DNA from: a virus
DNA: 64,000 bases
Virus record (IMG/VR): IMGVR_UViG_3300036715_002236
Span: 4,438 to 68,437 of that record
Direction: 5' to 3' (one strand)
Shown piece by piece: positions 13,808 to 35,920 of this stretch. The notes below the pieces were generated by a model. It was not told the origin of the DNA and did no database searches. It was given only the letters and a program-made list of their open reading frames with translations. The first letter of the stretch is position 1; each line of letters opens with the position of its first letter. A program made the translations under genes and the position numbers.

Positions 13808-14384
13808 GTGAATTACAGTGACGACTTTTTTATAAATGTCGAGCTAATTCTTACGGTAAGAGAAGTTGAAGAAGGCAGGCTAGAGAAAGCCCACCTGTGA
13901 GAACACCCATCACAACCAGCATCTTGGCCGTCTGGGGCTTGTCCCGAGAATGGTCGGCCATGATGAACTGGGTGAGGGACATGGCACCGCCCAAGGCGAA
14001 CGTCATGCCATAGACAAGTTGGACGGCGGGTTCCATGAGATTACGTCTCCCGAATAGACTCAGCGAAGGAGAGCGGGAAACTGAGAGAGTGGCCCACGGT
14101 GAAAACACCGCGAGGCTTCACTTCAAAGAGGCCGACCTTGTAGGAGCCGTCGATGAAATTGACGAACACGTTCTTGCCATCAAGAAGTTCGACATCATCA
14201 TAGGTGAGCTCCTTAGCACGGGGAGCGGGAACCGTGTCCTCAGTGAGAACGGTGCCGATTTCAGGAACTTCGTCAGGAACGATATTGAGCGGATTCATTT
14301 GGATATGGTGGTTGATGATTTTATAAATGTCAATAATAAAGCGAATGTTCTCAGTTTTATGTTCTCAGTGATATACTTATAGAC

Positions 14385-14528
14385 ATGGGAAGAAAGAAGC
14401 TATATCATACAAAGGAAGAACAAGATGAACGAACAAGGCGCAACTCAAAAAGATACTATAAAAACCATAGAGATGTTATTTGCACAAAGCGCATGTTGCG
14501 GTATCTACGGATTAAGAAACAAGCTTAA
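14385..14528 (+). CDS. small basic ORF overlapping GIY-YIG gene (copy 1, 47 aa)
   Basis: MGRKKLYHTKEEQDERTRRNSKRYYKNHRDVICTKRMLRYLRIKKQA; paralogues at 21514, 33301, 35755. Confidence 0.8.
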   Translation: MGRKKLYHTKEEQDERTRRNSKRYYKNHRDVICTKRMLRYLRIKKQA

Positions 14529-15124
14529 CGGGAAATGGTATGTTGGACAGAGTTTGGATATTCGTGCCAGGTTGATGCTATATCGTCGGGGGCGCTTGTC
14601 GAAGACAACCAAAACTCTATGCCGCGATAGCGAAGTATGGATTTGATGGCTTCGAAACGCACTTGTTGGAACAGTGTGCGGCAACCACCCTAAATGAGCG
14701 TGAAATACATTGGGTGAGCTTTTATAATTCGGCTGAGAAAGGATATAATCTTACAGAAGGTGGGAACAACGGAACACCAAGCGAAGAGACGCGCCTAAAG
14801 TTATCAAAGTCTCATATGGGACAGAGCAGACCTTGTTCAGAAAAAACAAAAGAGATAATGCGTAAGCGTATGACTGGAAGGACGATACTTCCAGAGTGGC
14901 GTGAAAAACTCAGATTAGCCAATATAGGAAAGAAGCACAGTGAAGAAACCAAAAAAACAATGAGCCTGTCACAAAAAGGAAATCGTGGAAGTTCTGGAAA
15001 ACATTGGATAACGAACGGACAAACATCCCGCCAGATAGATGTAAATATCATACCTGACGGGTGGAGAAAAGGACGTTTAATCCAAAAAGTTGCTGTAAGC
15101 GTCGGAATCCAAGCTCAAAACTAA
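14425..15124 (+). pseudogene. GIY-YIG homing endonuclease split by a frameshift
   Basis: GIYGLRN...WYVGQS in the first ORF; removing one G at 14588-14592 restores RRGACRRQPKLYAAIAKYGFDGF in frame with 14663..15124. Confidence 0.8.
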
Positions 15125-15415
15125 CATTCTGGTTCTATCATACGTTTGAATGCTGACCTTCGTGCCCTTGTAGTTCATCGAGCCGGAGAAGTCGTAGGTG
15201 GCGTAGGTCTTGTAAGTCCACTTGATGAGAGCGGAGAGGAAAGGGTTGAGGAGCTCCGTGTAGCCCGTAACCGGATTCTCGGTCAGAACGAGCTCACCTT
15301 CGGGAAGGAAGATGCCCATCGCGTCGAGCTTGGCGACGAGGTTGAGGTCGGGCTTGCGAAGGGCCTTGCCGTTGACCGTGTTGTTCGTATTGGTGAGATA
15401 TGAGGTAAGGTTCAT
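15077..15415 (-). CDS. hypothetical protein
   Basis: Leaderless ATG after promoter. Confidence 0.65.
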   Translation of the reverse strand: MNLTSYLTNTNNTVNGKALRKPDLNLVAKLDAMGIFLPEGELVLTENPVTGYTELLNPFLSALIKWTYKTYATYDFSGSMNYKGTKVSIQTYDRTRMLVLSLDSDAYSNFLD

Positions 15416-15719
15416 GTGGATTACAGTGACGGTATTTTTATAAATGTCAAGCTAATGTTATCGTCGTCCACGCCGGCCACTTTTTGATGAGGGTAGCTTG
15501 AACTTTCTTGAGATCTTTCAATGGAATAGTAAAGCGAGAGAAGTTCCGACGTTTCTCTCCGAGAATCTCTACAAGCACCAGATCCTCATCATACCAACGC
15601 TCAGCGTTGGACCAACGAATCACTTTTAGTTTTTGTCCATTACATGTAATCGTCATAAAGGTATCAACATCAACATTTATAAAATGTCAATTAAATTGGC
15701 GTTTTAGATTGGTTGGTTG

Positions 15720-16586
15720 TTACATATCAAAGCGGGGCACAAAACCCGTTGACATGTCCTTAATACGTTTTGTGACGTATTCATCGAATGGCAACAGCAA
15801 AGCTTCTGCGTCTTGGTGATAAAACGACGTTCTTGTTTTAGCGCCAATGTGCTTCGACATGATAAGAGACAAAGCATCTCCCGTTAGAGCACCTGACCGC
15901 ATGAAGGGATTTGCCCAAAAATATAGCCACTCAAAACTTGCGAGGGCAGAAAACCGTGTAAACTGGTCGTTGTTGGCATCCCAAGCGATGTTCCAGAACG
16001 TGGTAGCCTCAGCCCGAATCTGGCTAATCCACCGACTACGAGGATGTTCAAAAAGCCACAGAAAGTCACCGTTGGTATCGGTGCCATACTGAATCCGACG
16101 ACATTGGAACGTTCCACCCGTGCGTGCTGTGAAAAGAGGCTGGTATTCGTGAGAAACCACACACATATCCTCAAACCGCTTGACATCGACGGGAAGGCTC
16201 GGGAATGGAGCGTAATCGGTATCCCAGACACGACTACTATAAACGTTTGAGTCTTCCTTGGCGTAGTTCATCGTCCAATCGTAAAAACGTTGAGTCCGAG
16301 GAACCAAAGGAGTAGCAAAGGAGTAGCAGGGAGAATTACCTAGTCCAGCGAAACGCTCCTTCCACAGTTCCTTCCCACCTTCCGTAACCTGCTTGGCGAA
16401 GAACGTGTTATACTTCTGAGCGAGTCCTAGCCGCATCCGGAACAGACCGAATGCCAGCTGATTGAGTTCGTTCGGGTTGTGTAACTCCGTTTCGTTCACC
16501 CACTTACCAAACATTTCTTGGAACTCCGCGCCCATCGCGTCGTATGGAGGTTCTGCGATAACGTGGCGGAAGTCGATGGGATTCAT
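15720..16586 (-). CDS. Fido-fold (Fic/Doc/AvrB-like) protein
   Basis: FEWLYFWANPFMRSGALTG is a degenerate Fic motif; DAEALLLPFDEYV resembles the AvrB-family C-terminus. Confidence 0.6.
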   Translation of the reverse strand: MNPIDFRHVIAEPPYDAMGAEFQEMFGKWVNETELHNPNELNQLAFGLFRMRLGLAQKYNTFFAKQVTEGGKELWKERFAGLGNSPCYSFATPLVPRTQRFYDWTMNYAKEDSNVYSSRVWDTDYAPFPSLPVDVKRFEDMCVVSHEYQPLFTARTGGTFQCRRIQYGTDTNGDFLWLFEHPRSRWISQIRAEATTFWNIAWDANNDQFTRFSALASFEWLYFWANPFMRSGALTGDALSLIMSKHIGAKTRTSFYHQDAEALLLPFDEYVTKRIKDMSTGFVPRFDM

Positions 16587-17299
16587 GTCGCCAACGGTGA
16601 CAAACTTTTTATAAATGTCAAGCCGTAACGAGCTCAGGCGTGGGTTTCTTTATCTCAACTACAGCAGGAACTCGCTCATAGAGCTTCTGAGAAGCGCCAC
16701 GAGTCTTGCCGTCATGCTTTGTCTCGGAGTTGAGACGAAGTTCGTTTGCCTTTACCATTTTCTTAAGGCGCATGTAAATGGTAATGTAAAGAACACCTGG
16801 GTTCTTTGCCATCGCATCTTGAACCGTGAAGCGCACCTTGGAGGGCAGCTTCATCAGAAAATTATACTTGGCGCGGGGTTTTTTATTCATATAGAAAGAT
16901 TACGTTGGGTCTTCTCCGGTCAAAACCTTGAGGAGAGACATGTGGGATTTGCCAACTTGTGCGAGCCTTTCGCACGTTGAAATGAGCGCCGCTGAGATTT
17001 CTTTAATGGTGGAATTGAGCGCCTCAATCTGCTTGGCTTGAGCCAGCTGAACTTCGTTCAGACGGTTTACTTCCGTCTGATACTTCATTAGAACTTCGAT
17101 GGTTTCATTCATGGTGTAGCGGAGACAAACTTGGGCGCAGGTTGGAGTTGGTCTTGGCGGAACCATCTCGCGGAGATGATACCGACAAAACGAACGCTTG
17201 CTACCGCGTTATCGGTAGATGTGTAGGTGGATACGATTACTCCGGTCAGCCCGTGAGCGTCTGAACTAGGGTCATTGATTTGAACAGAGTCTTTGGGTT

Positions 17300-17545
17300 T
17301 CATGTTTTAAAACGGTCGTAGTTTTTCTCCAAGGCTTCCTTGGCATCGAAGAGGCCAAGGCCGGTGAGATCCCTATAGCGCTTGATGGCCTGGATGCGGT
17401 CGCCGTCAGCGTAGATTTTTGCGATAACAGGGGGAACGGTAGGGAGGTCGCTGGCGGCCGGATCGAACTCAACTGATGTCACGAGAGGCAGAAGTTTCTG
17501 CACAAGTGCCAGCAATTCGGCGTTGGATGTAATGGTAAGTTTCAT
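17300..17545 (-). CDS. small bL12-CTD-like protein
   Basis: RIQAIKRYRDLTGLGLFDAKEALE. Confidence 0.7.
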   Translation of the reverse strand: MKLTITSNAELLALVQKLLPLVTSVEFDPAASDLPTVPPVIAKIYADGDRIQAIKRYRDLTGLGLFDAKEALEKNYDRFKT

Positions 17546-17657
17546 ACGATGACGGTAACAGTTAAATTATAAAAGTCAAGAAGGAATCGAAACGAACTTA
17601 TCATTAATTCAAATCTTACTCACCTTGTCCGGCGGATTTCGGTGGCTTCGTTGAATA

Positions 17658-18083
17658 TCATGTGAGTAGGAAAGTAAGGCCCTTAGCGTATTTCTTGACT
17701 TGGTTCTTTGAAGGTTCGTCGGAAAGGTTCACCAGCATGTCCTTGATTTTAACAGCCGTAGCCAAAACGTTGGGTTTGACCCGAATCAGATAGTCCTCAT
17801 AGGACTCGCCCTCAATCTTAGTCATGGAAACCACGGCGGTAATGACTTCCTCAGAAAAACCGAACATGCGAAGCAGTTCGACGGTGGCAACCGTGTCTTC
17901 GAGAATGTCATGGAGTAGAGCCACCTGCTTCTCCAAGGGATTCTTGAATAGAGCAGCAACGGCGCGGGAATGGGTGATATACGGAGTGACCTTATCGTTC
18001 CGCGTCTGGCCAAAGTGGAAGTGCTCCGCAACTGCGTCAGCGCGGTCTACCAAGTTGGGTTGATTGAATAGGTGGTCTAACAT
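17658..18083 (-). CDS. HD-domain hydrolase, SpoT/Mesh1-like (small alarmone hydrolase-like)
   Basis: H-GQ-R, PYITH, ALLHDILEDT, VKIKD..N motifs. Confidence 0.8.
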   Translation of the reverse strand: MLDHLFNQPNLVDRADAVAEHFHFGQTRNDKVTPYITHSRAVAALFKNPLEKQVALLHDILEDTVATVELLRMFGFSEEVITAVVSMTKIEGESYEDYLIRVKPNVLATAVKIKDMLVNLSDEPSKNQVKKYAKGLTFLLT

Positions 18084-18717
18084 AAAAAAAGTGTGGATGA
18101 TTATTTTATAAATGTCAATACAGTTCGACAATATTTTTCTTAGAGGGCCGATATTTCTGTTTACTGAAGTATTTCAGTGAATCGGGATTATCGATGGGGG
18201 AGGCTCCACGTGGACCCTTCAGGTTGTAATAGAGAGGGTCAGCGTCCTTCGCGAAGAGCAGAAAGTCGCCGCTGTGGGCCCATTTTGAAACGAGATTGAA
18301 TACTCCACCGAGCTTTTTAGCGTCGGCGTAGGTGAGGTCGGTTTTTCTGGATTTAATCATGGTAGTTTATGCGGATGCGATAAGGCGAATGAGGCCGGAA
18401 ATACCCAAGCCAGCGGCTAGGCCTCCGAGCATACCGATGTAAATCGGTCGAATGTGTTCGATGCCGGCTCCAAGTGCCATACCAACACACATGGTAAAAA
18501 GAATGACATGGAGAAATACAGGGAAGTATCGGGAGTTCATAGAGATTTTACGTTTTCTGCGTTGAAGTCGTAGCCGTTGCCGGCGAGGTCAACCACCGTG
18601 TAAACGATGGGGCGACCAACACCTGCGTTGATTTGGAGAATTGTTCCGCCGTAACAGAGACAACTGTTGGGGAAGGTGGCAATCACCCTGTCGCCTATCT
18701 TGATAGGTTCCATGTTC

Positions 18718-18930
18718 TTAAACTTCCTTGAACAGTTCGTCCCACACTTCCGGCGGCGTGCCGGTCATCAGGAACTCACGCTCATCAGCGGTGAGGTAGG
18801 GGAAGGCCCTCTGAATGAGGGCCCCGTTCTCTCGCGCGAGATTGCCGATGAGGAGAAGCTCCGGTGTGAGCTTCGGCATGTCCATCGTGTAAGTCTTGCC
18901 GTCGAGCTGACAGCGCTTGGTAATCTTCAT
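18718..18930 (-). CDS. conserved small phage protein
   Basis: LIQRAFPYLTADEREFLMTG...WDELF; leaderless start. Confidence 0.65.
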   Translation of the reverse strand: MKITKRCQLDGKTYTMDMPKLTPELLLIGNLARENGALIQRAFPYLTADEREFLMTGTPPEVWDELFKEV

Positions 18931-19166
18931 GGTTAGATACTGTGTGAGATTTTTATAAATGTCAAGACTTGACCAGCTTTTTCTGCCAGATACGGATGTA
19001 ATCAGAATCGTAACCGACATTGACAAGACGACGCTTTTCTGCTCTCGCTTCCTTGAGAGTTAGAGAGCTGGTATGAAGTTTCCAACCCTCGTTCCCAACG
19101 TCCGTCCAATAGATTTCAACAGTGTAGTTCGTCATGTGGGTCACAGTGAAGACTATTTTATAAAAG

Positions 19167-19691
19167 TCAAGCCAAGACCGGCCCCAACCAACTGGCTAGC
19201 CAATAACTCCACTTGTGCTTGAAACGATTTCGGCGGAGATAGTTGTAAGTCTTGGCCATCTTATCCCGAAGGTCGTAGAGTCGCTTGTCCTCAAGCGTGT
19301 AAGTGTTCCCGCGCTTGGTGTTGCACGGAGAGCAGAGAGGTCGCATATTCCACACGTTGTTCTTGCCACCCTTGGAGGCCGGCAGGATGTGGTCTCGGTT
19401 CATCAGAACGTATCCACCGTCGTGCTCGGCATAGAGGTCAAGATGAAGTCCGCCCTTCTGTTCAGAACCGTGGCCCACCTTGTCTTGGGTGAGGATAATC
19501 TTGGTGCCCTCAAGACCACAGAAGACACACTTGCAACCGTGCAGGCCGAACACCTTCATGCGGGTGATGGAATACTTCCGGCCCTCATGCACCAACGTTC
19601 TGCTGTTATCATTGGTCATGGCCCGATGGATAACCTCGTTGACCGGAAGCTCTCCAAGAATCTTGGAGCCGGGATTATGTTTAATCTTCAT
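19167..19691 (-). CDS. HNH endonuclease
   Basis: CVFCG ... DHILPASKGGKNNVWNMRPLCSPCNTKRG. Confidence 0.88.
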   Translation of the reverse strand: MKIKHNPGSKILGELPVNEVIHRAMTNDNSRTLVHEGRKYSITRMKVFGLHGCKCVFCGLEGTKIILTQDKVGHGSEQKGGLHLDLYAEHDGGYVLMNRDHILPASKGGKNNVWNMRPLCSPCNTKRGNTYTLEDKRLYDLRDKMAKTYNYLRRNRFKHKWSYWLASWLGPVLA

Positions 19692-19722
19692 GTGAATTAC
19701 GGTGAGATATTTTTTATAAATG

Positions 19723-20130
19723 TCAAGAAACCTTTTCAACTTTCCAAACATTGACGACCTTAGTAGCCATGTTCGTATTCACAAGGTCATAGACCTCGCC
19801 ATCCTTCACGACAAGCACGTGGCCGTTGACGTGAACCAAATAGGTTCCAACGGAGAACTTGCTCAGAATATACATGAGGGTGCACCCTTCGATGGGAACC
19901 AGAATGAACCGATGACCGAACATGGTTCTCTGACGACCGAGCAGAGCGCCCGTATCAACCCCACGATTTCCTCGAATCTCCGGACGATACAGCTTGGGCT
20001 GTTCACGAACAAGAAGGTATTCCACGTCCTGATAAGAAACCCCGGTGACGAAGCAGATGGAGGTCGGAACACAAGTGCCCCGAATTCCGCGGGGAGCCAA
20101 GTTCTGAATCTTCAGTTGGTTAATAGTCAT
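19723..20130 (-). CDS. papain/C39-like phage protein (related to 45282..45764)
   Basis: TCVPTSI...G-Y; YLVHVNGHVLVVKDGEVYD gives Cys...His...Asp spacing. Confidence 0.5.
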   Translation of the reverse strand: MTINQLKIQNLAPRGIRGTCVPTSICFVTGVSYQDVEYLLVREQPKLYRPEIRGNRGVDTGALLGRQRTMFGHRFILVPIEGCTLMYILSKFSVGTYLVHVNGHVLVVKDGEVYDLVNTNMATKVVNVWKVEKVS

Positions 20131-20173
20131 ACGACCAACAGTGTATTATATTTTATAAATGTCGAGCTTAAAT

Positions 20174-20235
20174 TGGTGGATGGTATCGGATTCGAACCGA
20201 TGACGAAGCGCTCTACCAGACTGAGCTAACCACCC
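20174..20235 (-). ncRNA. anticodon-less tRNA-like RNA (62 nt) with G3:U70, A73 and encoded CCA
   Basis: GGGTGGT TA GCTC AGTCTGGTA GAGC GCTTCGTC ATCGG TTCGAAT CCGAT ACCATCC A CCA. Confidence 0.85.
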
Positions 20236-20727
20236 GAAAGTTTTAGGAGCACATACAAGTGCCCCAATCTTGACAACAGCTACTAGACCACATTCTGCAA
20301 CCTTCGCAATAGGTCATTGTGCCGAAGCAAAAAGGACACTCACTGCCACCAGAACTTTTACGTTGTTGGTGCCGGCGTGCGCGCTCAATACGACGATTCT
20401 GGCCACTGGTGAGTGGGCGAACCCCCTCCTTGACATTGTGACACGTAGGCTTCACAGGAATGACACGAGTTCAGCAAACGTGGAGAAATGGGTGTATTCG
20501 TCTTTATACTCCTGCGCATCATTGTTCCAAATGCGCTGACGGAGGATGACGGCGGAATCGAAAGCGTCACGGGTAACCGCCTCCTCACAATCGCCGGAAT
20601 CACAGAAGTATTCCTTTGAGGCGGGGTAATACGTGAAGCCAAAGTTGTTCAGAACCTTGACCTCTTCAGCGGTGAATGACGTTTCCATGTAGGTGACAGT
20701 GAATACATTTTTATAAAAGTCAACAGC

Positions 20728-20761
20728 AAAAAAAAGGCGAGCCTTTCGACTCGCCTTCTTA
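20728..20761 (-). terminator. intrinsic terminator
   Basis: AAGGCGAG-loop-CTCGCCTT with a T run on the minus strand, downstream of 20786..21427. Confidence 0.85.
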
Positions 20762-20785
20762 GGATGAAACCAACACTTACCTAAA

Positions 20786-21427
20786 TTAAACAGCAGCCTT
20801 CTCAGCCTCCAGCTCCTCCTTGGAGAACGGGGTGATGGCCTTCGTCACCGTGGTCTGCTTCTTCGTTTTCTTGGGGTCGAGGTAATCCTCGGGCCCGTGC
20901 TTCCGCTTGAAGCCACACTTGTCATAGATAGCGCATCCGTGGCACATATCATTGAGGAACCGATTGGGGTAGTGGCAGGTATCGTCGGAAGCGTAATCAA
21001 TGATGCCCGGCTGACCGCTACCGAAGTAGTTAGGGTCATTCGTCCAAGGATAGACCTTCTTTACAACTTCCTCCTCCTTGCCGTTCACCAGCTCCACGAC
21101 CTTCTCGACCTTGACGGCGACCAGCTTCTGCTTCTTGACCTTCTTGGGGAGCTTCTCCTTGGAAATCTTCGGAGCAATCTTGGGCAACTTACCCTTGTTG
21201 TTCTTCACGAGCTCCACAATCTGCTCCTTGGTGAAGCCGGCGTCGAGATACTTCTTAGCCTCCCGCGAAGTGTATTCCTTAATCATCCGCTCTTCTGACC
21301 CACCAAACTTTTTGGCGAGCGTCTTGGCGAAGTATTCTTGGTTTGCGAACGATTTGATGCCCGAGATTGCACATACCGGAAATATGTATTTTCCGTTTGG
21401 ACTACGTTCAAATGCTGTGAGTTTCAT
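20786..21427 (-). CDS. Lys-rich protein with Cys cluster
   Basis: CAISG and CHYP...MCHGCAIYDKC; own promoter and terminator. Confidence 0.75.
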   Translation of the reverse strand: MKLTAFERSPNGKYIFPVCAISGIKSFANQEYFAKTLAKKFGGSEERMIKEYTSREAKKYLDAGFTKEQIVELVKNNKGKLPKIAPKISKEKLPKKVKKQKLVAVKVEKVVELVNGKEEEVVKKVYPWTNDPNYFGSGQPGIIDYASDDTCHYPNRFLNDMCHGCAIYDKCGFKRKHGPEDYLDPKKTKKQTTVTKAITPFSKEELEAEKAAV

Positions 21428-21513
21428 GTATCCAAGGTGATTGTTTTTTTATAAATAGTCAATAAAAATCGATTATTCCCACGTTTTATGTTCTCATCTT
21501 TATATTTATAGAC

Positions 21514-21663
21514 ATGGGAAGAAAAAAACTACATCGAACAAAGGAAGAACTTAATGAACAAATTAGGCAACGATCCAACAGATACTATAAACGAAACAGA
21601 ACAGAAATCTGCAAAAAACGCATGTTGCGGTATTTACGGACTACAGAACAAGCTGAAGCCTGA
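21514..21663 (+). CDS. small basic ORF overlapping GIY-YIG gene (copy 2, 49 aa)
   Basis: MGRKKLHRTKEELNEQIRQRSNRYYKRNRTEICKKRMLRYLRTTEQAEA. Confidence 0.8.
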   Translation: MGRKKLHRTKEELNEQIRQRSNRYYKRNRTEICKKRMLRYLRTTEQAEA

Positions 21664-22354
21664 TAAATGGTATGTCGGACAAAGTTTAAACATCAATGCT
21701 AGATTGAACAAAGCTTATAGGCACGGCCATTGTCAAAAACAACCAAAGATATACAACGCTTTAAAGAAATATGGCTATGACGGTTTTGAAAAAGTTATAT
21801 TAGAAATATGTTTGAGAACTCAACTGGAAGAAAGAGAAATTTTCTGGATAAAAGACAAGAACTCAGTCGAACTTGGATACAACGTATTGTGGGGAGGTAG
21901 GGCTTGTAGTGAAGAAACTATTCAAAAACTTCGTAACTCTTTGAAGGGAAAATTTGTTGGAAAAGATAGGTGGTGGGCATATGGAAGGCAGAGGTCAGAA
22001 GAAACTAAAAGAAGAATTGGACTAGCAAACAAAGGAAAGAAACATACACAATCGTCTAAACAAAAGCTCAGAATAGCTCACACCGGCAAACATCTATCGG
22101 AAGAACATAGGAAAAATCTACGACTGTCTCAGTTGGGCAAAAAACATTCGTTGGAAAGAATAGAAAATATACGAAACTCTCTAACTGGAAAGACTGGAAG
22201 AATAACGTCTGACAAAACCAAGCAGAAAATACGTGATAAACTTAAAGGCAGGGTTATGTCTGAGGAACATAAGGCCAAACTCAGAAAACCTCACAAAGTA
22301 AAGAGAATCCACACAATAATGAGTAATGTCGGCCAAGTCGTAAACAATCCGTAA
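21554..22354 (+). CDS. GIY-YIG homing endonuclease with NUMOD3 repeats
   Basis: GIYGLQN...WYVGQS; GYN; SEETKRRIG and GKKH repeats. Confidence 0.9.
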   Translation: MNKLGNDPTDTINETEQKSAKNACCGIYGLQNKLKPDKWYVGQSLNINARLNKAYRHGHCQKQPKIYNALKKYGYDGFEKVILEICLRTQLEEREIFWIKDKNSVELGYNVLWGGRACSEETIQKLRNSLKGKFVGKDRWWAYGRQRSEETKRRIGLANKGKKHTQSSKQKLRIAHTGKHLSEEHRKNLRLSQLGKKHSLERIENIRNSLTGKTGRITSDKTKQKIRDKLKGRVMSEEHKAKLRKPHKVKRIHTIMSNVGQVVNNP

Positions 22355-23321: not shown

Positions 23322-23364
23322 TTGAATAGACTGAAGACTTATTTTATAAATGTCAAGAAAAAGT

Positions 23365-23427
23365 TGGTGAGTGGGACTCGAACCCACAAGTTTTTTCAAA
23401 CTAGCGGCACGTCTACCGGGCTCACTA
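23365..23427 (-). ncRNA. tRNA-like RNA 5 (T-arm, ACCA end, tetraloop hairpin in place of the anticodon arm)
   Basis: GTGAG..GGTAGAC..AGTTT-GAAA-AAACT..GTGGG TTCGAGT CCCAC TCACCA. Confidence 0.6.
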
Positions 23428-26773: not shown

Positions 26774-26900
26774 GTTTTTGAAGTAAAGATGTAGAGTGAG
26801 CTAGATTTTATAAAATGTCAAGTGTGTAATGAAAATTTTACACCACCTACCAACAACAGTTTTTCAGCAGAAGAAATACTTGAAGAACAAGGTAGTCAAC

Positions 26901-26930
26901 AAAAAAGGGACTCCTTTCAGAGTCCCTCTT
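26901..26930 (-). terminator. intrinsic terminator
   Basis: AGGGACTC-loop-GAGTCCCT with a T run on the minus strand. Confidence 0.85.
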
Positions 26931-26954
26931 AAGTCTATGAACAACAACTAGACG

Positions 26955-27608: not shown

Positions 27609-27927
27609 GTAGTTGAAGTAAAGATACAGAGTGACCTAAGTTTTATAAAATGTCAAGAAGATGTGGAGAGAAACTGTTTGCGGGTGACCTTGATTACCTA
27701 CCAGCAACACGGTGAGCACATGGTTTGAACTTCACCAACTTTCCACCCTTGCTCATGTAGCCTAAGTCACGGAGGATGAGATTCATAACTGTCAACTCAT
27801 GCATGAACAAAAGACCATCAGCCATACCACTCTGTGCGGCGAGGTAGTTGGGAGACTTAAGAAATACGTTGTAAACGGTTTGGGCGATTTGCTTGTTCGT
27901 GAGAATTCCAATGTTTTTCATAAAAAG

Positions 27928-28004
27928 TGGTGGTGCCACCCGGACTTGAACCGGGAACCAATTGCTTAAAAGGCAACTGCTCTAACCAATTGAGCTATGG
28001 CACC
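27928..28004 (-). tRNA. tRNA-Lys(TTT)
   Basis: GGTGCCA TA GCTC AATTGGTTA GAGC A GTTGC CTTTTAA GCAAT TGGTT CCCGG TTCAAGT CCGGG TGGCACC A CCA. Confidence 0.95.
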
Positions 28005-28796
28005 TAAAGTGTTAAGATGATTTCAGTTTTGCCACCATCTTACGGATTGGAGCGAGGTCGACGAGGACAACACGGAGGGCAATGTCTGGATGACAGGCTT
28101 TGTTGATGATACCCTCGAGAACCTTGATAGTTTCTTGTTTGAGCTTGTCGTCCACAGATGACACCCTACCTAAGAAATATAAAAAGTCAATTACTTTTTC
28201 TTACGCTCTCTGATTTTCGCTTCGAATAACTTTCCCGAGCGAACTGACTGCGTAGGCGTAGGTAGAGGAGCTAACTTTGGGTGCCCCTTCTCAAACTTCT
28301 CGCCGTTGCAGTTGCTAATCTTCATCTCACAAATAGATATGAATTACTTGTGAGAAGTTGTCAAACTATTTTCGAAAATTATCGATTGACGAGCGTGAGT
28401 CCAAGCCGCCCCTTGCCTACGAAACGTCCCTGAGCATCAAACGTGTCACCGTTGATTTCACGTGCAACAAGTCGTTGATTCTCATTGAGAATGGCATAGT
28501 TGTTTTCGCTGTTCTTCTGAACGTAAGCGATAACTTTTCCGGATGGGCCTCTGACGATTTCTACTGACATGATATTTTAGTTGGGTTGATTATTTTTTAC
28601 GAATGAGGTATTTCGCTGAAATCCACTGTTCAATTATTTCAGCCATAGTTTCTCGCTGAATATCGGTCAAGTCTAGTCTACGTTTGTCCGTGGCTCCATC
28701 AAAATCGAGAACAGCTTCAGCATCTTCAATTGCGTCTACAAGATCTTCTATCAATTCTTTATTCATATTTGAAGACTACTGCCTAATTATAAAATG

Positions 28797-29174
28797 TCAA
28801 GACTTATCGGAAATTTTGAATGAGGTGAGAACTTCGATTAGTTCGGCTGAACAGATAGCTGTTTCAGCGAAGTTCAATCCGTTCGAAAAAACAATCGCAG
28901 AAAACTTTTCGCGTAGCTCAGCCTTTTCATCGTAGGATAGCTCGATATTCTTCATCACATTCTTTCGTGAAATCACATCTAAAATTTCTTTACAGTAAAA
29001 TCCTGAATAGTTACTTTCCAAAGAGATTACTTTGGCTTTCCACGCCGACCCCTTAGATCTTAGAGGTGGAAGACTAACGGTGTCGCCTACACTCACGTTA
29101 CGACCTCCATCCAAATAGGTGACGTTCATGCCCATTGGGCTCTCAACAACAACAACGCCGGTGTAATTTCTCAT
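28797..29174 (-). CDS. hypothetical protein
   Basis: Leaderless ATG; stop lies inside the next TTGACA. Confidence 0.6.
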   Translation of the reverse strand: MRNYTGVVVVESPMGMNVTYLDGGRNVSVGDTVSLPPLRSKGSAWKAKVISLESNYSGFYCKEILDVISRKNVMKNIELSYDEKAELREKFSAIVFSNGLNFAETAICSAELIEVLTSFKISDKS

Positions 29175-29211
29175 GCCACCAGACTAGCTAAACTTTTATA
29201 AAATGTCAACG

Positions 29212-29246
29212 AAAAAAGAGAGCCCGATCAAGGAACTCTCTTTTTT
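29212..29246. terminator. bidirectional intrinsic terminator
   Basis: AAAAAAGAGAG...CTCTCTTTTTT. Confidence 0.8.
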
Positions 29247-29323
29247 GACCACGATTGACCAACAATCATCAGTTTAACGTCATCAGGGGACGTAACCGTT
29301 GTTACACGGAAATTGATTCACAG

Positions 29324-29351
29324 AAAAGACGAACCTTGCGGGCTCGTCTTT
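29324..29351 (-). terminator. terminator-like hairpin after the large ncRNA
   Basis: AAAGACGA..GCAA loop..TCGTCTTTT on the minus strand. Confidence 0.65.
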
Positions 29352-29364
29352 AGTTATTAGATTA

Positions 29365-30142
29365 GGTTGGCTTGAGAATACAGCGTTCCTCGATACATCT
29401 TTCATGGGATTATAGATTCCCCATTTTTCCATCATCCTTTCGGACGGTAATGTTCATGGTTGCCTTTTTCGTATCAGGCGATAGACTCTCTCTTAAACTA
29501 CTCGACACCTTTTTCAACTGTCTATGGGAGCTACCCACAAACGAGCCTACTCGTTGTATCAAACCTAAATGACCTTGCGAGCCACCTAAGCTCTCCATTC
29601 CTTTCGGTGGAGACTTTAACCACTTACGTTTAAGAGGATTACAGTGCTTGTGCTTTTAATTTCCATTAATAGTAGAATTGCCTTGCGGCTTCCAAAAACG
29701 ATGTGCTGTAATGATGGCCGGTTTCCCTTTTGGAGAACCCGATACCACCCACCGCCATACCTTTCCCTTGCGAGGACTTGGGCCGTTCTAATCGAATGAG
29801 CAGCTGGTCGTAACCAACGTCACCGACTCTAACTGGATTAACCCACTTGGCTGCAAAACCTCGCAGTATAATCCTTACGCTTCAGCTTACTTCCTCGTCG
29901 GGTGTTGTGCTTTTCTCCAAGATGCCATCTTGATATTTTCCCTCAACCACTTGGTCGTCAGGATTTCGACTAGAGAACTGCTCCGACTTCGGACCTACTC
30001 CTACCTATTAGTAGAAGCGAGAGCCTACGCTTGTATAACTGACCGCGATGCGGCGACAGTGTTTGGAACACCGCCTTTCCCTACCTTTCGATAGACGTAT
30101 CTTTACCAACCCTTGCGAGCTGGAAGGACATCATACTGCCCT
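29365..30142 (-). ncRNA. large structured ncRNA, GOLLD-like (~780 nt)
   Basis: No credible ORF; many GCAA/GAAA tetraloop hairpins and AGTA motifs on the minus strand; 3' GCTGTATTCTCAAG; lies after a tRNA-like gene and a boxA; family assignment from memory only. Confidence 0.65.
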
Positions 30143-30171
30143 TAAATTGTTAAACTGTAAAAGAACTAAAT

Positions 30172-30243
30172 TGGAGCGAATCTACGATTTGATACGTAAC
30201 CTCTCTACGGTTGTAGAGTGTGCTAACATACACCAGCCTTCGC
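30172..30243 (-). ncRNA. degenerate tRNA-like RNA with CCA and a 4-nt anticodon loop
   Basis: GCGAA/TTCGC acceptor, GTGT/GCAC D-stem, CTCTAC-AACC-GTAGAG, TTACG/CGTAG T-stem, T CCA. Confidence 0.6.
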
Positions 30244-30306
30244 GTAACTGACTGAACTTATGACTATGACAGGTAGTTTATAAATGTCAAGCCTTTCGAC
30301 TAACTA

Positions 30307-30480
30307 AATTGAGATTTTCCATTCTATCCCCAGCCAAATATTTGCAAGTGTCTTTTATCTACTTACTTATACTCCATTATCTATCTTCTGCGCGTCATCT
30401 TTTACAACTTCGCACTTGGTTTCAATAGCGGCCGCGACTTCGGAATCGCGTCTGGTTCATCTTAACGGGGAGCTTTTCAA
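30307..30480 (-). ncRNA. putative rod-like structured RNA
   Basis: Own promoter at ~30506-30535, boxA-like GTTCTTTCGACA, long-range TCCCC/GGGGA and CAAGTG/CACTTG pairs, no ORF. Confidence 0.35.
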
Positions 30481-31071
30481 AACTTGAACTGTCGAAAGAA
30501 CACCATCACTCTACACGCTTATATATAACTGTCAAACAAAAAGCGTTAAGCAATCCAAAATTTCCAAACTTTTTTCGGATACTGAGACGTAAGGTTCGCC
30601 ATGAAGGTTTCAACTGCCCACTGTGGAAAGTTGCTGGCGAGGGTGAGTGCCACATTCGATCCGTCGTCAATCGCATCACCCGTTTTGCTATCAAGGATGG
30701 GCTCACGTTTCGTAAGTCGTTGACCCATAAGGGTTACTAGCTTGTTATTCTGTGATTTCGTGGTCATTGGGGGGAAAAAAGATTGCGACGATAATAAAGG
30801 CAAGAAAGAGGAGGGCATACCCTAACATCCAAAGAGCCCACACAAGGGGCCCAGCGAGCAACCGAGAGGACACTACGCCCCATTCCCACCCACATGCCCC
30901 AAGGACAATCCATGCCGACAGTAGGATGTGGAGGAGGGCAATCATTGAAATGGCGGGAAGGAGAAGTCACACAGACCCTCTCCAAAGCCATCGCTCATCT
31001 GCCCACAGAACTCCTCACCAAGTTTTTTGGAAGGAAACTCGACGATGATTTGATATGGTTTGTTCATAAAA

Positions 31072-31539
31072 TTACCAGGCGAACCCACCAAGCCCACCCG
31101 AACGACGGAGCACCGTGGAGGCGCGTCTGGTAGAGATACGGTCACGGATGGTGCCAGCGGAGACGAGCCCCTTGTTGAAAATGTCGATGAACGGTTGGAG
31201 AGCCTTCTGGCGCTTCGTGGTGATGTAGACCGACACCGTGTGGGTGATGTGCGGGCCCTTACCCACCGTCACGATGTTGTGCTCATCCGAGCTATAGGGC
31301 TTCTTGGCCACTTCGATGGCGTAGGTGCGAGCCTCAAAGCCGCTGCCAGCACGAGCAGCGCTGATGGGGAGAGTGGCGATAACCCAGCCCCGATTGGTGA
31401 CATAGTGGAGCGTGAGAACTCCACGATGGTTGCCCTCATAGACAAGCTTGTTCTTGGACTTCCAAGATGGGCTCTTGAGGTCGGACTTGAGAATACCCTT
31501 GGGCAACTCAGGAGACTTAACGGTGGCGGTCTTGTTCAT
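31072..31539 (-). CDS. hypothetical protein
   Basis: Leaderless ATG after promoter. Confidence 0.65.
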   Translation of the reverse strand: MNKTATVKSPELPKGILKSDLKSPSWKSKNKLVYEGNHRGVLTLHYVTNRGWVIATLPISAARAGSGFEARTYAIEVAKKPYSSDEHNIVTVGKGPHITHTVSVYITTKRQKALQPFIDIFNKGLVSAGTIRDRISTRRASTVLRRSGGLGGFAW

Positions 31540-33300
31540 GTGGTTTAGAGTGACGTTGTTTTTATAAATGTCAAGACTCAACGTTGTGAGATTCGACGGG
31601 AAGTAAATAGCCGTCGGTCTCGTTATCGGCGGCGAATTTCCATGCTAACTCCTTATCGAAGAAAATCTTGGCTATGGACATGTTACCGTGAAAAACGACA
31701 TGAACTTTGGTGGTGTCGTTGAAACTGAGAACTTTACTCGGTATTTCGTGCATGGGAACCACAGTTCCTTTACATTTTTCGCATATCATACCGGCACGAC
31801 CTCCGCGGTTCCCTTCTTTGTGTCGAGTTCGATGGTGACATACTCACCATACTCAAACCACTTTTCAGCAACTTCACGAGCCTCATCGGCATCGTCCGGC
31901 TCTAAGAGGCGAAAAGCTTCATCAATAGCGTCGGGGTTTTTAAACGTGATTTGGATTTTCACTTGACATTTCCTCCAAAGACTTTCTTGAGAGCCTCAAT
32001 CGGCCCCCAAGCGGAAAAGGAGTTGTATTTCTGGCTGCCCTTGTAGTCCCACACACCACAACGTTCACCATCAACGGTAAATCCCCAGCTGTTGCTGACC
32101 TTACTGGGGTCATCTTCACAGTTAGCCTTGAAGCCAATCAGCTTGGTGACCTGAGCGACAGTAAGACCTTCAATGGTGGCAGTTCGGCTGTCACCAGCTT
32201 CATCGACGGGAAGAATAATGGGTTTGGACATAAAATTAGAATAAGGATGTTTTATAAAAAGTCAAGCTTTAATTACATTGAGCTATACAGGTTCATCCAC
32301 GCTCTGGCTGTCCGATTGTCGTCAATCATCTGCCAAATCGTGTCTGCATAATACTCATAGTTGTTCTCGGTGAAGACCGTTGGTTCAAAGATATGAACAC
32401 AAAGGTCTGAGGATTCTCCTGTTCCATATTCGCCTCTACCACTGAAAGTCATACCGTCGATTTTTCCTTTGAATACAAACGACACCTCTGCGCAACCATC
32501 TTTGACTTTAAAAGAAAATCCTTTGACTTTAAAAGAGTCTTTCATGTTAGCTGAGTTTGCTGGCGTAAGGGTGATAACGAACGCGAGACTTGAAGTAGTC
32601 CTTGGAGGGGCCTCGAGGAGCCGTGTGCGAAGCCGTCCACAACTGGCCCTGATACTTCATCAGAATGTGGGCAGACTTACCCATGCGGTTCAGAGCCTCG
32701 AGGATGGTGGTCTTGATGACCTCCGACTCCGTGGCGGGGAACTCATGTTTCTCCAAGATGATTTCAGCGGAACCGGTGTTGACCGCGAGCAATTGCACTT
32801 TGTTGTCCATGTAGATTACAGTGAGGATTATTTTATAAATGTCAAGCTTTACCGTGTTAATAGTCCAAAGAATCCACCGTATGAGAGGCTGCGTCAATAA
32901 GCTCAGCATTAGCGCAACCAACGTGCTCCTCCATGTCGAAGAGGGCATTCTCAATCGAGCCCAATTCATATTGAAGGTCATAGGAGTTATCCGTTGCTTC
33001 GTCAAGAAGGTAGCCTACAATCTCCGCGAGAAAATCCCACTCTTCTCCAAGATTAGAAAGATTTCCCTCTTCCTTTTCCAAAGATTCCACAAGGCGATCT
33101 GATTCTCGAAGAAGTTTTTTAACTTCACGCTCTCTCTTGATGAGGGCGGCACGGCTCTGCTTGATTTCGGTGGCACGAAATGCCATCTCTTTAAGAATTT
33201 CTGTTACGTTCATGGGAATAGAATTGATGAGTTTTTATAAAATGTCAATCAAAATAAGTGATTTTCTGATGTTTTATCTTCTGACTCAATACTTATAGTC

Positions 33301-33444
33301 ATGGGAAGAAAGAAATTACATCGAACAAAAGAAGAGAAAAATGAACAACATCGAATCCGTTCCGCTAGATACTATGAGAGAAACAGAGCCAAAGTCTGTG
33401 AAAGAGTCATGCTGCGGTATCTACGGATTAAGAAACAAGCTTAA
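33301..33444 (+). CDS. small basic ORF overlapping GIY-YIG gene (copy 3, 47 aa)
   Basis: MGRKKLHRTKEEKNEQHRIRSARYYERNRAKVCERVMLRYLRIKKQA. Confidence 0.8.
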   Translation: MGRKKLHRTKEEKNEQHRIRSARYYERNRAKVCERVMLRYLRIKKQA

Positions 33445-34279
33445 CGAAAAATGGTATGTTGGGCAGAGCTTGGATATGCACAAGCGTTGGTTGAATGACT
33501 ACAAACGAATGAAGTGTTCTCGCCAACCAAAAATTTACAATGCTCTCAAAAAATATGGCTACGATGGATTTGACAAGGTGATATTGGAGGAATGTCCAAA
33601 CGATATTAATTTTTTGAATCGGAGAGAAATTTTTTGGATAAAATATTACAATTCTATGTTGAACGGATATAATCTTACCGGAGGAGGTGGAGCAAAAGGA
33701 ACATACTCACCTGAATCAATTGAAAAAATGAGAAATGCCCAACTGGGGAAGAATCATACGGAAGAAACAAAAGAAAAAATCAGAAAAATTACCACTGGAA
33801 AAAAACAATCTAACGAAACAATATCGAAGAGAAAGTATTCAAATAAGAATTTCAAACACACTGAGACATCGAAGCGAAAAATGTCCATCTTAGCTACCGG
33901 AAGAAAACATACAGAACAGACGAAGAAAAAATTATCTGAGATGCAAATGGGTCGGATTCGTTCTCCTCGTTCCGAAGAAACAAAGCGAAGAATCAGTGAA
34001 GCAAAATTGGGATGGAATCCTTCAACCGAAACACGAATGAATATGAGTAAGGGTCAAAAAGGAAGAATTTTTTCCGACGAACATCGACGGAAAATATCTC
34101 AGAGTGTAAAAGGAAAAATTATGCCAATTGAGGCGATAGAGAAAATTCGTCAATGGAATCTTGGAAGAAAATGTTCCGAAGAATCAAAAAAGAAAATGAG
34201 TGAGTCCCGAAAAAAATATTTGGAGAGAAAAAAAGGGATAGCGAATTCCACTTCGCCAGAGCCCCTGCTCTCAAAGTAA
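33341..34279 (+). CDS. GIY-YIG homing endonuclease with multiple NUMOD3 repeats
   Basis: GIYGLRN...WYVGQS; GYNLTGGG; HTEETKEKIR-type repeats. Confidence 0.9.
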   Translation: MNNIESVPLDTMRETEPKSVKESCCGIYGLRNKLNEKWYVGQSLDMHKRWLNDYKRMKCSRQPKIYNALKKYGYDGFDKVILEECPNDINFLNRREIFWIKYYNSMLNGYNLTGGGGAKGTYSPESIEKMRNAQLGKNHTEETKEKIRKITTGKKQSNETISKRKYSNKNFKHTETSKRKMSILATGRKHTEQTKKKLSEMQMGRIRSPRSEETKRRISEAKLGWNPSTETRMNMSKGQKGRIFSDEHRRKISQSVKGKIMPIEAIEKIRQWNLGRKCSEESKKKMSESRKKYLERKKGIANSTSPEPLLSK

Positions 34280-35668
34280 TTCCAAATGTTCTGCCAAATC
34301 GCCATCGTTTAAGGTATCAAGACAATTAAGTTTTGCCTGAACGCGACGACAAATATTTTCTTCAATGGTTTTTGCCCCATAGACAATGATTTGATAGGAC
34401 TTGGTAAGACCGTTTAATCGCCAAATTCTTCCCAGAGCCTGACGAAGATTCTGTGCCGACCAGTTCGGGCTGATGATGGAAGCTCGAGCGTGTTTACCGT
34501 TCAAGTCGTGGAGGGAAATGCCCGTGCCACCCGCCGCGATGTTGATAATAAGAATCCGCTTCGTGTCCGCGTTGAAGCCGGTGATGTCCGCCTTACGGTC
34601 AGAATCACGTTGACCACCGACCACGAAACCGATTTCCTCCGCGGGAATTTTCCAAGTGTCAGTGAGACGCTTGAAGATGCCACCAACGGAATCTTCAAAG
34701 TTGACGAAGATGCAAACCGACTTCCCCTCATCGTAAAGCTCACGAGCCTTTTCCGCGAACAGAGGAACCTTGCAAAGTTCGGCGAGACGACGAGCCTTCA
34801 TCATCACCGCGAAGATGTGCTCACTGTAGCCCTTGCTCTTTTCCTCGAGCTGAGCCAGTTCATACTCCATTTCATCGTAGACCGACTGAAGCTTCTTTTG
34901 GTTTGCACCAAGGTCGAAGGCATCCGCGACGATGTGAGACTCAGGGAAGATTTTCCCGAACATGTCAACGGTCATCCGCGACGTGCACTTGGTCGTCTGA
35001 TAAAGATAGTTGTGGAGAGCCATCATCGACTCAGTGGCTTCCTTCGAAATCATGTCCCAGCTCATCAAGCCGAAACGACCAACCCACTTAGCACCGTGGA
35101 TACGGCAAAAATCGTTGAAGTTATAAAGCTTGTGCATGTTCGTCAGATAACCGAACGCCTTCATCTCCAAAGGAGAACAAGCGACGGTTGCAGACGACAC
35201 AAGGACACGATACCCCTGCAACTTGAGAGCGATGAGCATCCACGAATTCGAGGTGTTCGCACCCTTGCACTTGTGGCCCTCATCGACAATGACAAGGGAG
35301 TTTTGGGGAAAGGAAAACACGGGGATTTCCGTAATCGCGTTGACCTTAAGTGTGGACGGGTCCTTCAGCTTCTTCCACTTCATCCAGCGGGTAGAACCGC
35401 GGGAGAGTTTTTCGAAGTTGACGATAGCCTTCGGTTTGAGGTTGAAGAGTTTGACGACGCTCTCCCAAGCTGGAATGACAGCTTTGGGAGAAATAACGAC
35501 CACAGAAACATTCATCTCCCGAGCGATAGCAGAAGCACAATACATCTTACCACATCCGGTTTCGGAAGTGTCTACTGCGAAGCCGTTGATATAAAGGCTA
35601 TCCACCAAGGTCTTAACGTGGAGGATTTGCGGTTCGAGCAAGCCACTCGAGTTGATTGTGTTAGTCAT
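34271..35668 (-). CDS. superfamily 2 (SNF2-like) helicase
   Basis: TGCGK, DEGH, SAT, GGTGISL, QALGRIWR motifs. Confidence 0.9.
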   Translation of the reverse strand: MTNTINSSGLLEPQILHVKTLVDSLYINGFAVDTSETGCGKMYCASAIAREMNVSVVVISPKAVIPAWESVVKLFNLKPKAIVNFEKLSRGSTRWMKWKKLKDPSTLKVNAITEIPVFSFPQNSLVIVDEGHKCKGANTSNSWMLIALKLQGYRVLVSSATVACSPLEMKAFGYLTNMHKLYNFNDFCRIHGAKWVGRFGLMSWDMISKEATESMMALHNYLYQTTKCTSRMTVDMFGKIFPESHIVADAFDLGANQKKLQSVYDEMEYELAQLEEKSKGYSEHIFAVMMKARRLAELCKVPLFAEKARELYDEGKSVCIFVNFEDSVGGIFKRLTDTWKIPAEEIGFVVGGQRDSDRKADITGFNADTKRILIINIAAGGTGISLHDLNGKHARASIISPNWSAQNLRQALGRIWRLNGLTKSYQIIVYGAKTIEENICRRVQAKLNCLDTLNDGDLAEHLELL

Positions 35669-35754
35669 TTAAATGAGGATGAATTGATTTTTATAATAGT
35701 CAATATAAATAGTAAATTTCTCACTTTTATCTTCTCACCGTTATACTTATAGAC

Positions 35755-35901
35755 ATGGGAAGAAAGAAGCTATATCACACAAAGGAAGAACAAGATGCAA
35801 ACATTCGAGCCAAGTCAAAGCGCTACTACGAACGAAACAGAGAAGCTGTCAAAGCCAGAGTCATGTTACGGTATCTACGGACTCAGAAACAACATGGATA
35901 A
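35755..35901 (+). CDS. small basic ORF (copy 4, 48 aa)
   Basis: MGRKKLYHTKEEQDANIRAKSKRYYERNREAVKARVMLRYLRTQKQHG. Confidence 0.8.
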   Translation: MGRKKLYHTKEEQDANIRAKSKRYYERNREAVKARVMLRYLRTQKQHG

Positions 35902-35920
35902 CCTCAGGAACAGAGAATAA
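35795..35920 (+). pseudogene. truncated GIY-YIG remnant
   Basis: +1 frame reads ...ESCYGIYGLRNN then diverges and stops. Confidence 0.7.

Follow-up and report, generated by a model that had tools for sequence, protein, structure and literature searches.

Four cassettes in a viral contig

We analysed a 64,000-nucleotide (nt) stretch of viral DNA, positions 4,438 to 68,437 of IMG/VR record IMGVR_UViG_3300036715_002236 (hereafter the window, whose numbering is used throughout; motif scans took in the whole 68,437-nt contig), which carries four plus-strand copies of a cassette in which a small open reading frame (ORF) overlaps, in another frame, the 5′ end of a GIY-YIG homing endonuclease ORF or what is left of one. 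The small ORFs lie at 14385-14528 (47 amino acids (aa), isoelectric point (pI) 10.6, 17 Lys and Arg versus 5 Asp and Glu), 21514-21663 (49 aa), 33301-33444 (47 aa) and 35755-35901 (48 aa, intact). Exactly 40 nt after each start an ATG in the +1 frame (14425, 21554, 33341 and 35795) begins the nuclease ORF, and the overlaps of copies 1 to 4 measure 104, 110, 104 and 107 nt. All four peptides share the pattern MGRKKL..TKEE..RYY.RN..MLRYLR, and the bases that encode MLRYLR in the peptide encode CCGIYG in the nuclease. This arrangement, including the double use of the codons for the nuclease CGIYG motif, had been described in an earlier note on this DNA, and it was confirmed at all four sites. Peptides 2 to 4 are 62-64% identical to copy 1, with 23 columns invariant across the four, and the DNA surrounding the four small ORFs has a mean identity of 74%. 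A six-frame motif scan of the contig found no copies beyond these four.

The large ORFs are recognizable as GIY-YIG homing endonuclease genes by their catalytic domain, motifs and DNA-binding tail. The second (21554-22354, 266 aa) and third (33341-34279, 312 aa) are intact, and the first 23 residues of nuclease 2 come from the DNA of small ORF 2. PF01541 (GIY-YIG) matched the ORFs at 14425, 21554 and 33341 with 24.6, 24.8 and 37.5 bits (cut-off 22.6), and NUMOD3, a modular DNA-binding tail, matched 14663-15121 and the ORFs at 21554 and 33341 with 32.4, 48.6 and 72.3 bits (cut-off 20.4); the large ORFs also match phrog_314, phrog_7168 and phrog_5123. The catalytic residues of GIY-YIG nucleases are those of the GIY and YIG motifs together with a conserved Arg, Glu and Asn, and G26, I27, Y28, Y40, G42, R50, E95 and N110 were invariant across nine GIY-YIG sequences. 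The first nuclease gene (14425-15124), also of GIY-YIG/NUMOD3 type, is broken by a frameshift at or beside a run of five G at 14588-14592, which leaves a first part (14425-14646) and a second part open in another frame (14576-15124). In cassette 4 the body of the nuclease is deleted, and a 41-aa stub (35795-35920) that retains the GIY part only ends 19 nt past the small-ORF stop. That the peptide at 35755 is intact beside a nuclease stub had been pointed out before and held, but the nuclease at 14425 proved to be broken as well.

Cassettes 1 and 4 differ at one position over the first 43 nt of the small ORF (14385-14427 versus 35755-35797) and diverge strongly beyond it, a mosaic pattern that suggests exchange between cassettes inside the genome.

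Selection on the overlapping frames and the breadth of the peptide family

The ratio of nonsynonymous to synonymous differences (pN/pS) was computed for the four window copies, over codons 1-13 (the 39 nt ahead of the nuclease ATG) and codons 14-35 (the overlap before GIY), and for 33 independent nearest-neighbour pairs from 72 of 73 unique viral loci, one HNH fusion (L017) being dropped as out of register. In the window copies, pN/pS in the peptide frame was 0.19 over codons 1-13, and over codons 14-35 it was 0.54 in the peptide frame, 1.03 in the nuclease frame and 0.92 in the third frame. Across the 33 pairs the peptide frame gave 0.31, against 0.85 in +1 and 1.20 in +2, with 310, 194 and 432 differences at peptide codon positions 1, 2 and 3. 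By segment, the peptide-frame ratio for these pairs was 0.20 (codons 1-13), 0.34 (codons 14-35) and 0.39 (codons 36-42), and over nt 41-106 the +1 (nuclease) frame gave 1.07. Entropy by codon position over codons 1-30 was 0.79, 0.59 and 1.07 (21/24 sequences).

Purifying selection acts on the small ORF over the full length of the 42 aligned codons, which marks it as a protein-coding gene, and the overlapping 5′ extension of the nuclease ORF, which shows no amino-acid constraint, is an overprinted passenger frame. The earlier proposal that the peptide is selected was borne out, also outside the overlap, and the difference between frames indicates that the constraint is not a by-product of nuclease conservation. 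The direction of overprinting, in contrast, had been read the wrong way round, as a peptide laid over the nuclease: because pN/pS is low in the peptide frame and about 1 in the nuclease frame, it is the N-terminal extension of the nuclease that is the overprinted part, and the peptide domain occurs in frame elsewhere. After about residue 42 the peptide tail is variable because the other frame encodes nuclease there; the often seen ending ..NKRNLQDNK is what the codons for ..SGIYKI.NK give when read out of frame.

Two scans of IMG/VR with the peptide returned 104 loci, 69 of them unique. The small ORF has 45-60 codons in 67 of the 69, the other two being in-frame fusions, and a long overlapping ORF (at least 120 codons and overlapping the small-ORF end) lies in the +1 frame in 62 loci and in the +2 frame in two. 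The first 21 overlapping proteins scanned gave GIY-YIG, NUMOD3, zinc-ribbon, N6/N4 DNA methylase and HNH types. Comparison of 48 further overlapping ORFs with PHROGs gave 25 of GIY-YIG type, eight with HNH or other endonuclease PHROGs and three EndoVII-like, the remainder being two weak matches to phrog_314, three to PHROGs of unknown function and seven ORFs without a match. Among the loci inspected no member was seen inside an ordinary operon. Several IMG/VR contigs gave two or more loci, and in four loci (L011, L037, L076 and L100) an intact small ORF stands beside a nuclease remnant of 61-85 aa, like window copy 4.

A family profile built from 27 peptides and run against 1.84 billion proteins found 433 representatives (at 50% identity) with E ≤ 0.001, of which 42 reached E ≤ 1e-10; their length is mostly 44-60 aa. 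The combination of profile search and gene neighbourhoods that had been suggested as a check reveals a family of 433 representatives, whose members in the viral loci mostly front nucleases. A word-indexed search gave 571 clusters of 24-111 aa among 1135 candidates, and the 120 of these 571 that were listed carried no Pfam domain, their names being ‘hypothetical protein’ and one evidently automatic label. For the window peptides, Pfam gave no family at E ≤ 1 save two chance-level rows, PHROGs gave no family for any of the four, the best sequence match in the PDB had an E-value of 1.1 and the best in BFVD was an uncharacterised 56-aa Caudovirales protein (E 0.3). A tblastn search of 50,697 GenBank phage records, with the BLAST low-complexity filter on, found no family member, and one genome each of 185,579 prokaryotic species yielded two family loci, both on short contigs of metagenome-assembled genomes. 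Because GenBank phages gave no member and the prokaryotic genomes just these two loci, the habitat of the family is, as judged by these searches, uncultured phages and almost only those. Full-text literature searches found no published account of the peptide or the cassette.

The domain also occurs in frame at the N-terminus of phage HNH nucleases (L017, P0044, P0115 and P0130), in which its R-Y-Y..N motif is sometimes repeated, with up to four matched stretches in P0103, and in one NUMOD3/AP2 protein (P0030). These five HNH proteins resemble the cassette peptides in their profile match (E 7e-11 to 4e-7), their MGRK.. start and YY..N[KR], and the N-terminal 25 residues of L017 are 64% identical; they differ in that their motif shares the reading frame of the nuclease and often recurs. 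The motif belongs to no Pfam family, 26 of the 28 longer profile matches scanned had no Pfam family at all, and no solved structure matching P0044 was found. Natural in-frame joins link the peptide to a zinc-ribbon body (L103, peptide ORF of 114 aa), to the C-terminal tail of a GIY-YIG nuclease (P0006, 116 aa) and to a GIY-less YIG/NUMOD3/AP2 body (P0030, 335 aa), and these three are probably products of deletions or frameshifts in cassettes.

Beyond phages, the first ~45 residues of Agaricomycete hypothetical proteins (P0018, P0052, P0105, P0132, P0144 and similar, from Candolleomyces, Coprinellus, Ephemerocybe, Boletus and Hypholoma) match the profile with E 1e-14 to 1e-6, and some carry a second copy of the motif. 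Proteins such as KAJ2931251.1 and KAF8131202.1 begin MGR[KP][KR]LY.T.EE..A.R..S.RYYERN..I, like the phage peptides, but are eukaryotic and 160-650 aa long, with unrelated C-terminal parts and no Pfam family. The match may reflect common descent, transfer or convergence.

The upstream element and the start of the nuclease frame

Each cassette opens with a promoter-like element on the plus strand. In cassette 1 (14345-14380) it consists of a core, GTTTTATGTTCTCA at 14354-14367, and a -10-like sequence, TATACTTAT at 14372-14380, which ends 4 nt before the ATG; a direct repeat, ATGTTCTCAGT, occupies 14345-14355 and 14359-14369. Cassette 2 (21483-21509) has GTTTTATGTTCTCA at 21483-21496 and TATATTTAT at 21501-21509, cassette 3 (33271-33296) has GTTTTATCTTCTGA at 33271-33284, AATACTTAT at 33288-33296 and a TTCTGA direct repeat, and cassette 4 (35724-35750) has CTTTTATCTTCTCA at 35724-35737, TATACTTAT at 35742-35750 and a TTCTCAC direct repeat. 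The core pattern GTTTTAT[G/C]TTCT[C/G]A is exact at 14354, 21483 and 33271 and has one mismatch at 35724, so the report of a shared upstream motif at all four sites stands; the sole other match, at 46652, has two mismatches. The -10-like sequence TATAYTTAT is present in all four window copies and, by regular expression, in 50 of 73 loci. In the form [AT]ATA[CT]TTAT it occurs nine times in the contig, and in eight of these an ATG follows after 4-6 nt. Seven of the eight ORFs so fronted are of homing-endonuclease type: the four cassettes, two minus-strand GIY-YIG genes and one phrog_3339-type homing endonuclease, the eighth being an 826-aa ORF of unknown kind. In relatives the element resembles a fair sigma-70-type promoter, TTGACG-16-TATATT scoring 10/12 in L021.

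In 34 of the 50 loci with the -10-like element the next ATG likewise lies 4-6 nt downstream. Over all 50 loci the next ATG is the peptide’s in 18, one in the nuclease frame (+1) in 27 and one in the +2 frame in five. A Shine-Dalgarno-like motif precedes only four of 37 contig ORFs of at least 150 aa, and the purine-rich AAGGAAG that had been noticed before the nuclease ATG is not conserved, reading AAAGAAG in copy 3, L002 and L013. In predicted RNA structures the first ~38 nt stay free of pairing, and folds of the 150-nt 5′ regions are no more stable than those of shuffled sequences (z-scores 0.15, -0.81, -0.11 and +2.04). A consensus fold of six 5′ regions reached -1.53 kcal/mol with seven pairs, none of them covarying, and Rfam gave nothing inside the cassettes. 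The spacing suggests that the transcript would be nearly leaderless, starting 0 to ~3 nt before the first ATG, and that both ORFs would initiate near its 5′ end.

In the promoter-like element GTTTTAT is flanked by directly repeated sequences, 5-11 nt long and spaced at a period of 15 (14 in two window copies). The repeat is identical within a locus and different between loci (TGACG, TCACG, TTACG, CTAATG, TCTCAG and others), and the longest repeat averaged 6.0 nt over 50 loci versus 3.40 ± 0.16 in shuffled sequences. In the window it lies at 14345-14369 and in the regions 33276-33296 and 35727-35748, and it is also seen in the L006-L103 upstream regions; four loci have a possible inverted second copy.

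Across loci the first +1-frame ATG lies between -46 and +74 relative to the peptide ATG, and at +41 in the window. In 12 of 69 loci the +1 frame is stopped within the first 40 nt, with the ATG then at +32 or +41; because the frame is closed upstream, the nuclease of these loci starts on its own codon. This bears directly on a further suggestion of the earlier note, that the small ORF forms the N-terminus of a frameshift fusion. Such recoding could take the form of +1 ribosomal frameshifting or of transcriptional slippage within the A-run at codons 3-5. Unlike a programmed frameshift fusion, the loci have no slippery site conserved in the alignments, and the A-run, although it reaches A7 in window copy 2, L003, L008, L010 and L011 among others, is interrupted in window copies 1, 3 and 4. 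M37, R39, Y40 and W/L41 are kept as peptide residues irrespective of the other frame, be it CCGIYG, C.DIGK or a different sequence. In the window type the GIY codons lie under peptide codons that are conserved also in loci whose other frame is not GIY, and a shift before these codons would lose peptide residues and a shift after them would lose the GIY motif. In favour of recoding stand the +1 relation in 62 of 69 loci, the +1 frame open from the peptide start in the four window copies and the natural in-frame fusions L017, L103 and P0030. The frame bias nevertheless has a simpler cause: where the conserved YY precedes E, D, K or N, the +2 frame reads TGA or TAA, so that only the +1 frame can reach the 5′ end of the mRNA. 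We consider recoding very improbable, and slippage in the A-run was rejected as its mechanism because the run is interrupted and the +1 frame closed in these 12 loci.

The surroundings of the cassettes hold further homing endonucleases. Five more genes of this type lie in the window, at 9548-10261 (plus strand), 19167-19751, 24920-25630, 39820-40458 and 60469-61368 (all minus strand); three are GIY-YIG, one HNH and one of phrog_3339 type, and with the cassettes they make nine in 64 kb. The sequence TTGACATTTATAAA, allowing up to two mismatches, has 40 matches between 4405 and 39709, 39 of them on the minus strand, versus 0.94 expected. Each site is followed after ~22 nt by the ATG of a small minus-strand gene, and the set is presumably an early-promoter class of the phage; the four cassettes are plus-strand inserts between minus-strand genes fronted by it. 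Contigs of four DNA sequencing runs aligned to 16401-36400 showed no insert-free allele, and contig joints on this stretch fell at the repeated TTGACATTTATAAA sites or where cassette 1, which lies outside it, aligned to cassettes 3 and 4. A GOLLD RNA (RF02032) lies on the minus strand at 29369-29757 (161.1 bits versus a gathering threshold of 150, full model 1-416), ~1.4 kb from a minus-strand tRNA at 27931-28004. No close relative was found among GenBank phages, which gave only tRNA-sized DNA matches and one helicase match at 24% identity.

A candidate controller of nuclease expression

AlphaFold2, with a 27-row alignment, modelled the product of small ORF 2 as a basic coil (residues 1-9) followed by one helix (residues 10-48), with a predicted local distance difference test (pLDDT) score of 94.8. 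The window peptides have a pI of 10.6-11.0 and 15-17 Lys and Arg versus 5-6 Asp and Glu, a net charge of about +10, and conservation falls on the GRKKL tail, T9, E12, E15, several Arg and Lys, Y24-Y25, N/H28, I32, M37, R39, Y40 and W41. This mix of basic and aromatic residues would fit nucleic-acid binding. Among specific folds, a ribbon-helix-helix protein, considered for the K-L-Y-R-T start, was dropped on the single-helix model, and an AT-hook, present in 14% of members of the nearest named Atlas cluster (score 0.88), is a lead only and has no Pfam match.

Taken together, we are confident that the small ORF is a real, separately translated and selected gene tied to homing-endonuclease cassettes. 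As for what it does, the best explanation overall, to which we assign a probability of about 0.45, is that it encodes a separate nucleic-acid-binding accessory protein that controls nuclease expression, so that of the roles named in the earlier note we favour the autoregulator; a regulatory role as such we put forward tentatively, at somewhat less than even odds. Each site would be a portable 5′ cassette, made of the promoter-like element and the small gene, to which a free-standing homing-endonuclease gene is joined. Its small gene would yield a separate protein of 47-60 residues, with the basic MGRKKL tail and a long helix bearing two R-Y-Y/W motifs, and the nuclease ORF would have a start codon of its own, an ATG close to the 5′ end of the shared transcript, its frame crossing the small gene in +1 as an unconstrained leader and its catalytic core beginning at about peptide codon 38-45. 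A single short and nearly leaderless mRNA would thereby give two proteins through a choice between start codons, with no frameshifting. The peptide would be a nucleic-acid binder, with the A/T-rich promoter of the cassette or the mRNA 5′ end as its target, and would so set the level or timing of the nuclease. It may act in cis and also, because the promoter type is common to other homing-endonuclease genes of the genome, in trans on these, and action in trans would explain why the peptide is retained where its own nuclease has decayed. A bolder version, which we regard as unlikely, would make the peptide a new minimal domain of one basic helix, two R-Y-Y/W motifs and a GRKK tail that serves as a master switch in trans of all homing-endonuclease cassettes of a phage genome, a timing device akin to a controller protein, is carried by unrelated nucleases that overprint their own 5′ ends, and was recruited as the N-terminus of mushroom nuclear proteins.

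Several observations weigh against a controller of nuclease expression. The peptides match no known DNA- or RNA-binding family in Pfam, PHROGs, the PDB or BFVD. Because the peptide start comes first in 18 loci and the nuclease-frame start in 27, no single attenuation logic can hold for all of them, and because the methylase-linked members L018 and L023 are without TATAYTTAT (by the regular expression used), a promoter-specific role would not be general unless the target differs. A simple sigma-70 scan found no promoter at cassette 2, and the -35-like bases of the window cassettes are poor. A search from the nuclease side, in which 35 of 46 loci had a match reaching the N-terminus, gave 26 unique GIY-YIG relatives, none with the small ORF and most starting 1-4 residues before GIY; these nucleases work without the peptide, and so would the window paralogue at 9548-10261 (plus strand), which starts MKQTGIYG, is 41% identical to the nuclease at 21554 and has no small ORF. 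Finally, the survival of the peptide beside damaged nucleases (window copies 4 and 1, L011, L037, L076 and L100), from which an addiction- or immunity-like logic had been drawn, was upheld as an observation, but it is weak support for that logic, since the loci were ascertained with the peptide as bait and a damaged peptide beside an intact nuclease could not show up.

The same evidence bears on other roles. The peptide could be a DNA-transaction cofactor that binds DNA or its ends together with the enzyme that follows, aiding target finding, bending, end protection or repair and through them homing. A basic, helical peptide that fronts such varied DNA-acting enzymes (GIY-YIG, HNH types, EndoVII-like and methylase) would suit this role, as would the use of the same motif as an in-frame, often repeated N-terminus of phage HNH nucleases, with up to four stretches in P0103. 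Close nucleases nonetheless function without the peptide, as the 0 of 26 relatives and the paralogue at 9548 indicate, and the peptide is retained beside nuclease stubs, so we judge a cofactor rather unlikely. Retention without a nuclease would also fit a protein that benefits the phage in a way unrelated to the nuclease, such as host takeover or nucleoid binding, and is linked to homing endonucleases only through the use of the cassette as a handy, recombinogenic landing pad or expression module; genomes commonly hold several copies (four in the window), and the mosaic of copies 1 and 4 suggests exchange. Set against this role are the 62 of 69 loci with a long overlapping ORF in a fixed frame, mostly a nuclease, and the lack of any member in an ordinary operon among the loci inspected, and we think it less probable than a cofactor.

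An inhibitor or antitoxin that binds and neutralises the nuclease protein, as the earlier note had also proposed, seems decidedly improbable. The small gene does lie directly upstream of, and overlaps, a potentially toxic nuclease gene, and the peptide does persist after nuclease loss; yet the partner is unspecific, since the same family stands before three or more unrelated kinds of nuclease and also before a DNA methylase, and relatives of the nuclease as well as the window paralogue do without the peptide. In contrast to type II antitoxins, the peptides are not paired with one toxin family, and a very basic single helix corresponds to no known antitoxin fold, be it ribbon-helix-helix, helix-turn-helix or AbrB. 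Could the act of translating the small ORF alone occlude or open the nuclease start, the peptide itself being functionless? By position the small ORF does resemble a regulatory upstream ORF or leader peptide, a short ORF that precedes the main one on a common mRNA, 5′-proximal, overlapping the nuclease start and in an unstructured region. Leader peptides, however, are typically free to vary outside a short arrest motif, whereas here the whole peptide is constrained, with amino-acid purifying selection across 42 codons (pN/pS 0.20, 0.34 and 0.39 by segment); the domain also recurs in frame in other proteins, and in 27 of 50 loci the first ATG is that of the nuclease frame. We give a purely cis-acting upstream ORF hardly any credence.

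A nuclease-controlling peptide would work most like a controller protein, yet it departs from that family in fold and operator and is a member of no family tested. The controller (C) proteins of restriction-modification systems (C.PvuII type) are helix-turn-helix proteins of ~80 aa which act as dimers on palindromic C-boxes. Their genes lie directly upstream of the endonuclease gene, overlap it by a few bases and are read from a leaderless transcript with the repeats just upstream of the promoter, and their products delay or limit nuclease expression. The cassettes likewise place a small gene upstream of and overlapping a nuclease gene. A nearly leaderless transcript would be a further likeness; the spacing from the -10-like element to the first ATG is 4-6 nt in 34 of 50 loci and in eight of nine contig instances. 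They differ in having no helix-turn-helix match, the model being one helix over residues 10-48, in an overlap of 104-110 nt or total, and in repeats that are direct, of period 15 and different between loci rather than palindromic boxes. In phage T4, expression of I-TevI is limited through its own promoter region and by translational control, the nuclease itself and an RNA hairpin being the agents. The cassettes share with it a phage homing endonuclease and a proposed control of expression via the promoter region, but they have no conserved RNA structure that we could find and encode a separate conserved small protein. Lambda Rz/Rz1 is an out-of-frame nested phage gene pair in which both products are functional; here too two proteins would come from the same DNA in different frames, but only one frame of the shared stretch is constrained, and the second is carried along as the leader of a catalytic core, which begins at the end of the overlap.

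Small accessory genes that overlap the gene of a selfish nuclease are already known as a kind. As far as we searched the literature, Pfam, PHROGs, the PDB and BFVD, the protein family, its sharing by unrelated nucleases and the reversed overprinting are new. Gene callers and the libraries searched largely miss this large protein family or leave it unnamed, and its link with the fungal proteins is an unexplained one between domains of phage peptides and eukaryotic proteins. The cassettes are also a clean natural example of an overprinted, unconstrained frame that belongs to the long ORF instead of the short one. Large phages have free-standing homing endonucleases as their main selfish elements, and to our knowledge the restraint of their harm to the carrier is known for a few T4 genes only. 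Several unrelated nuclease families share one conserved small gene and one promoter-like element at the 5′ end, both products apparently being read from a nearly leaderless mRNA, in a genome with few Shine-Dalgarno sites, which offers a testable handle on how homing-endonuclease expression is controlled.

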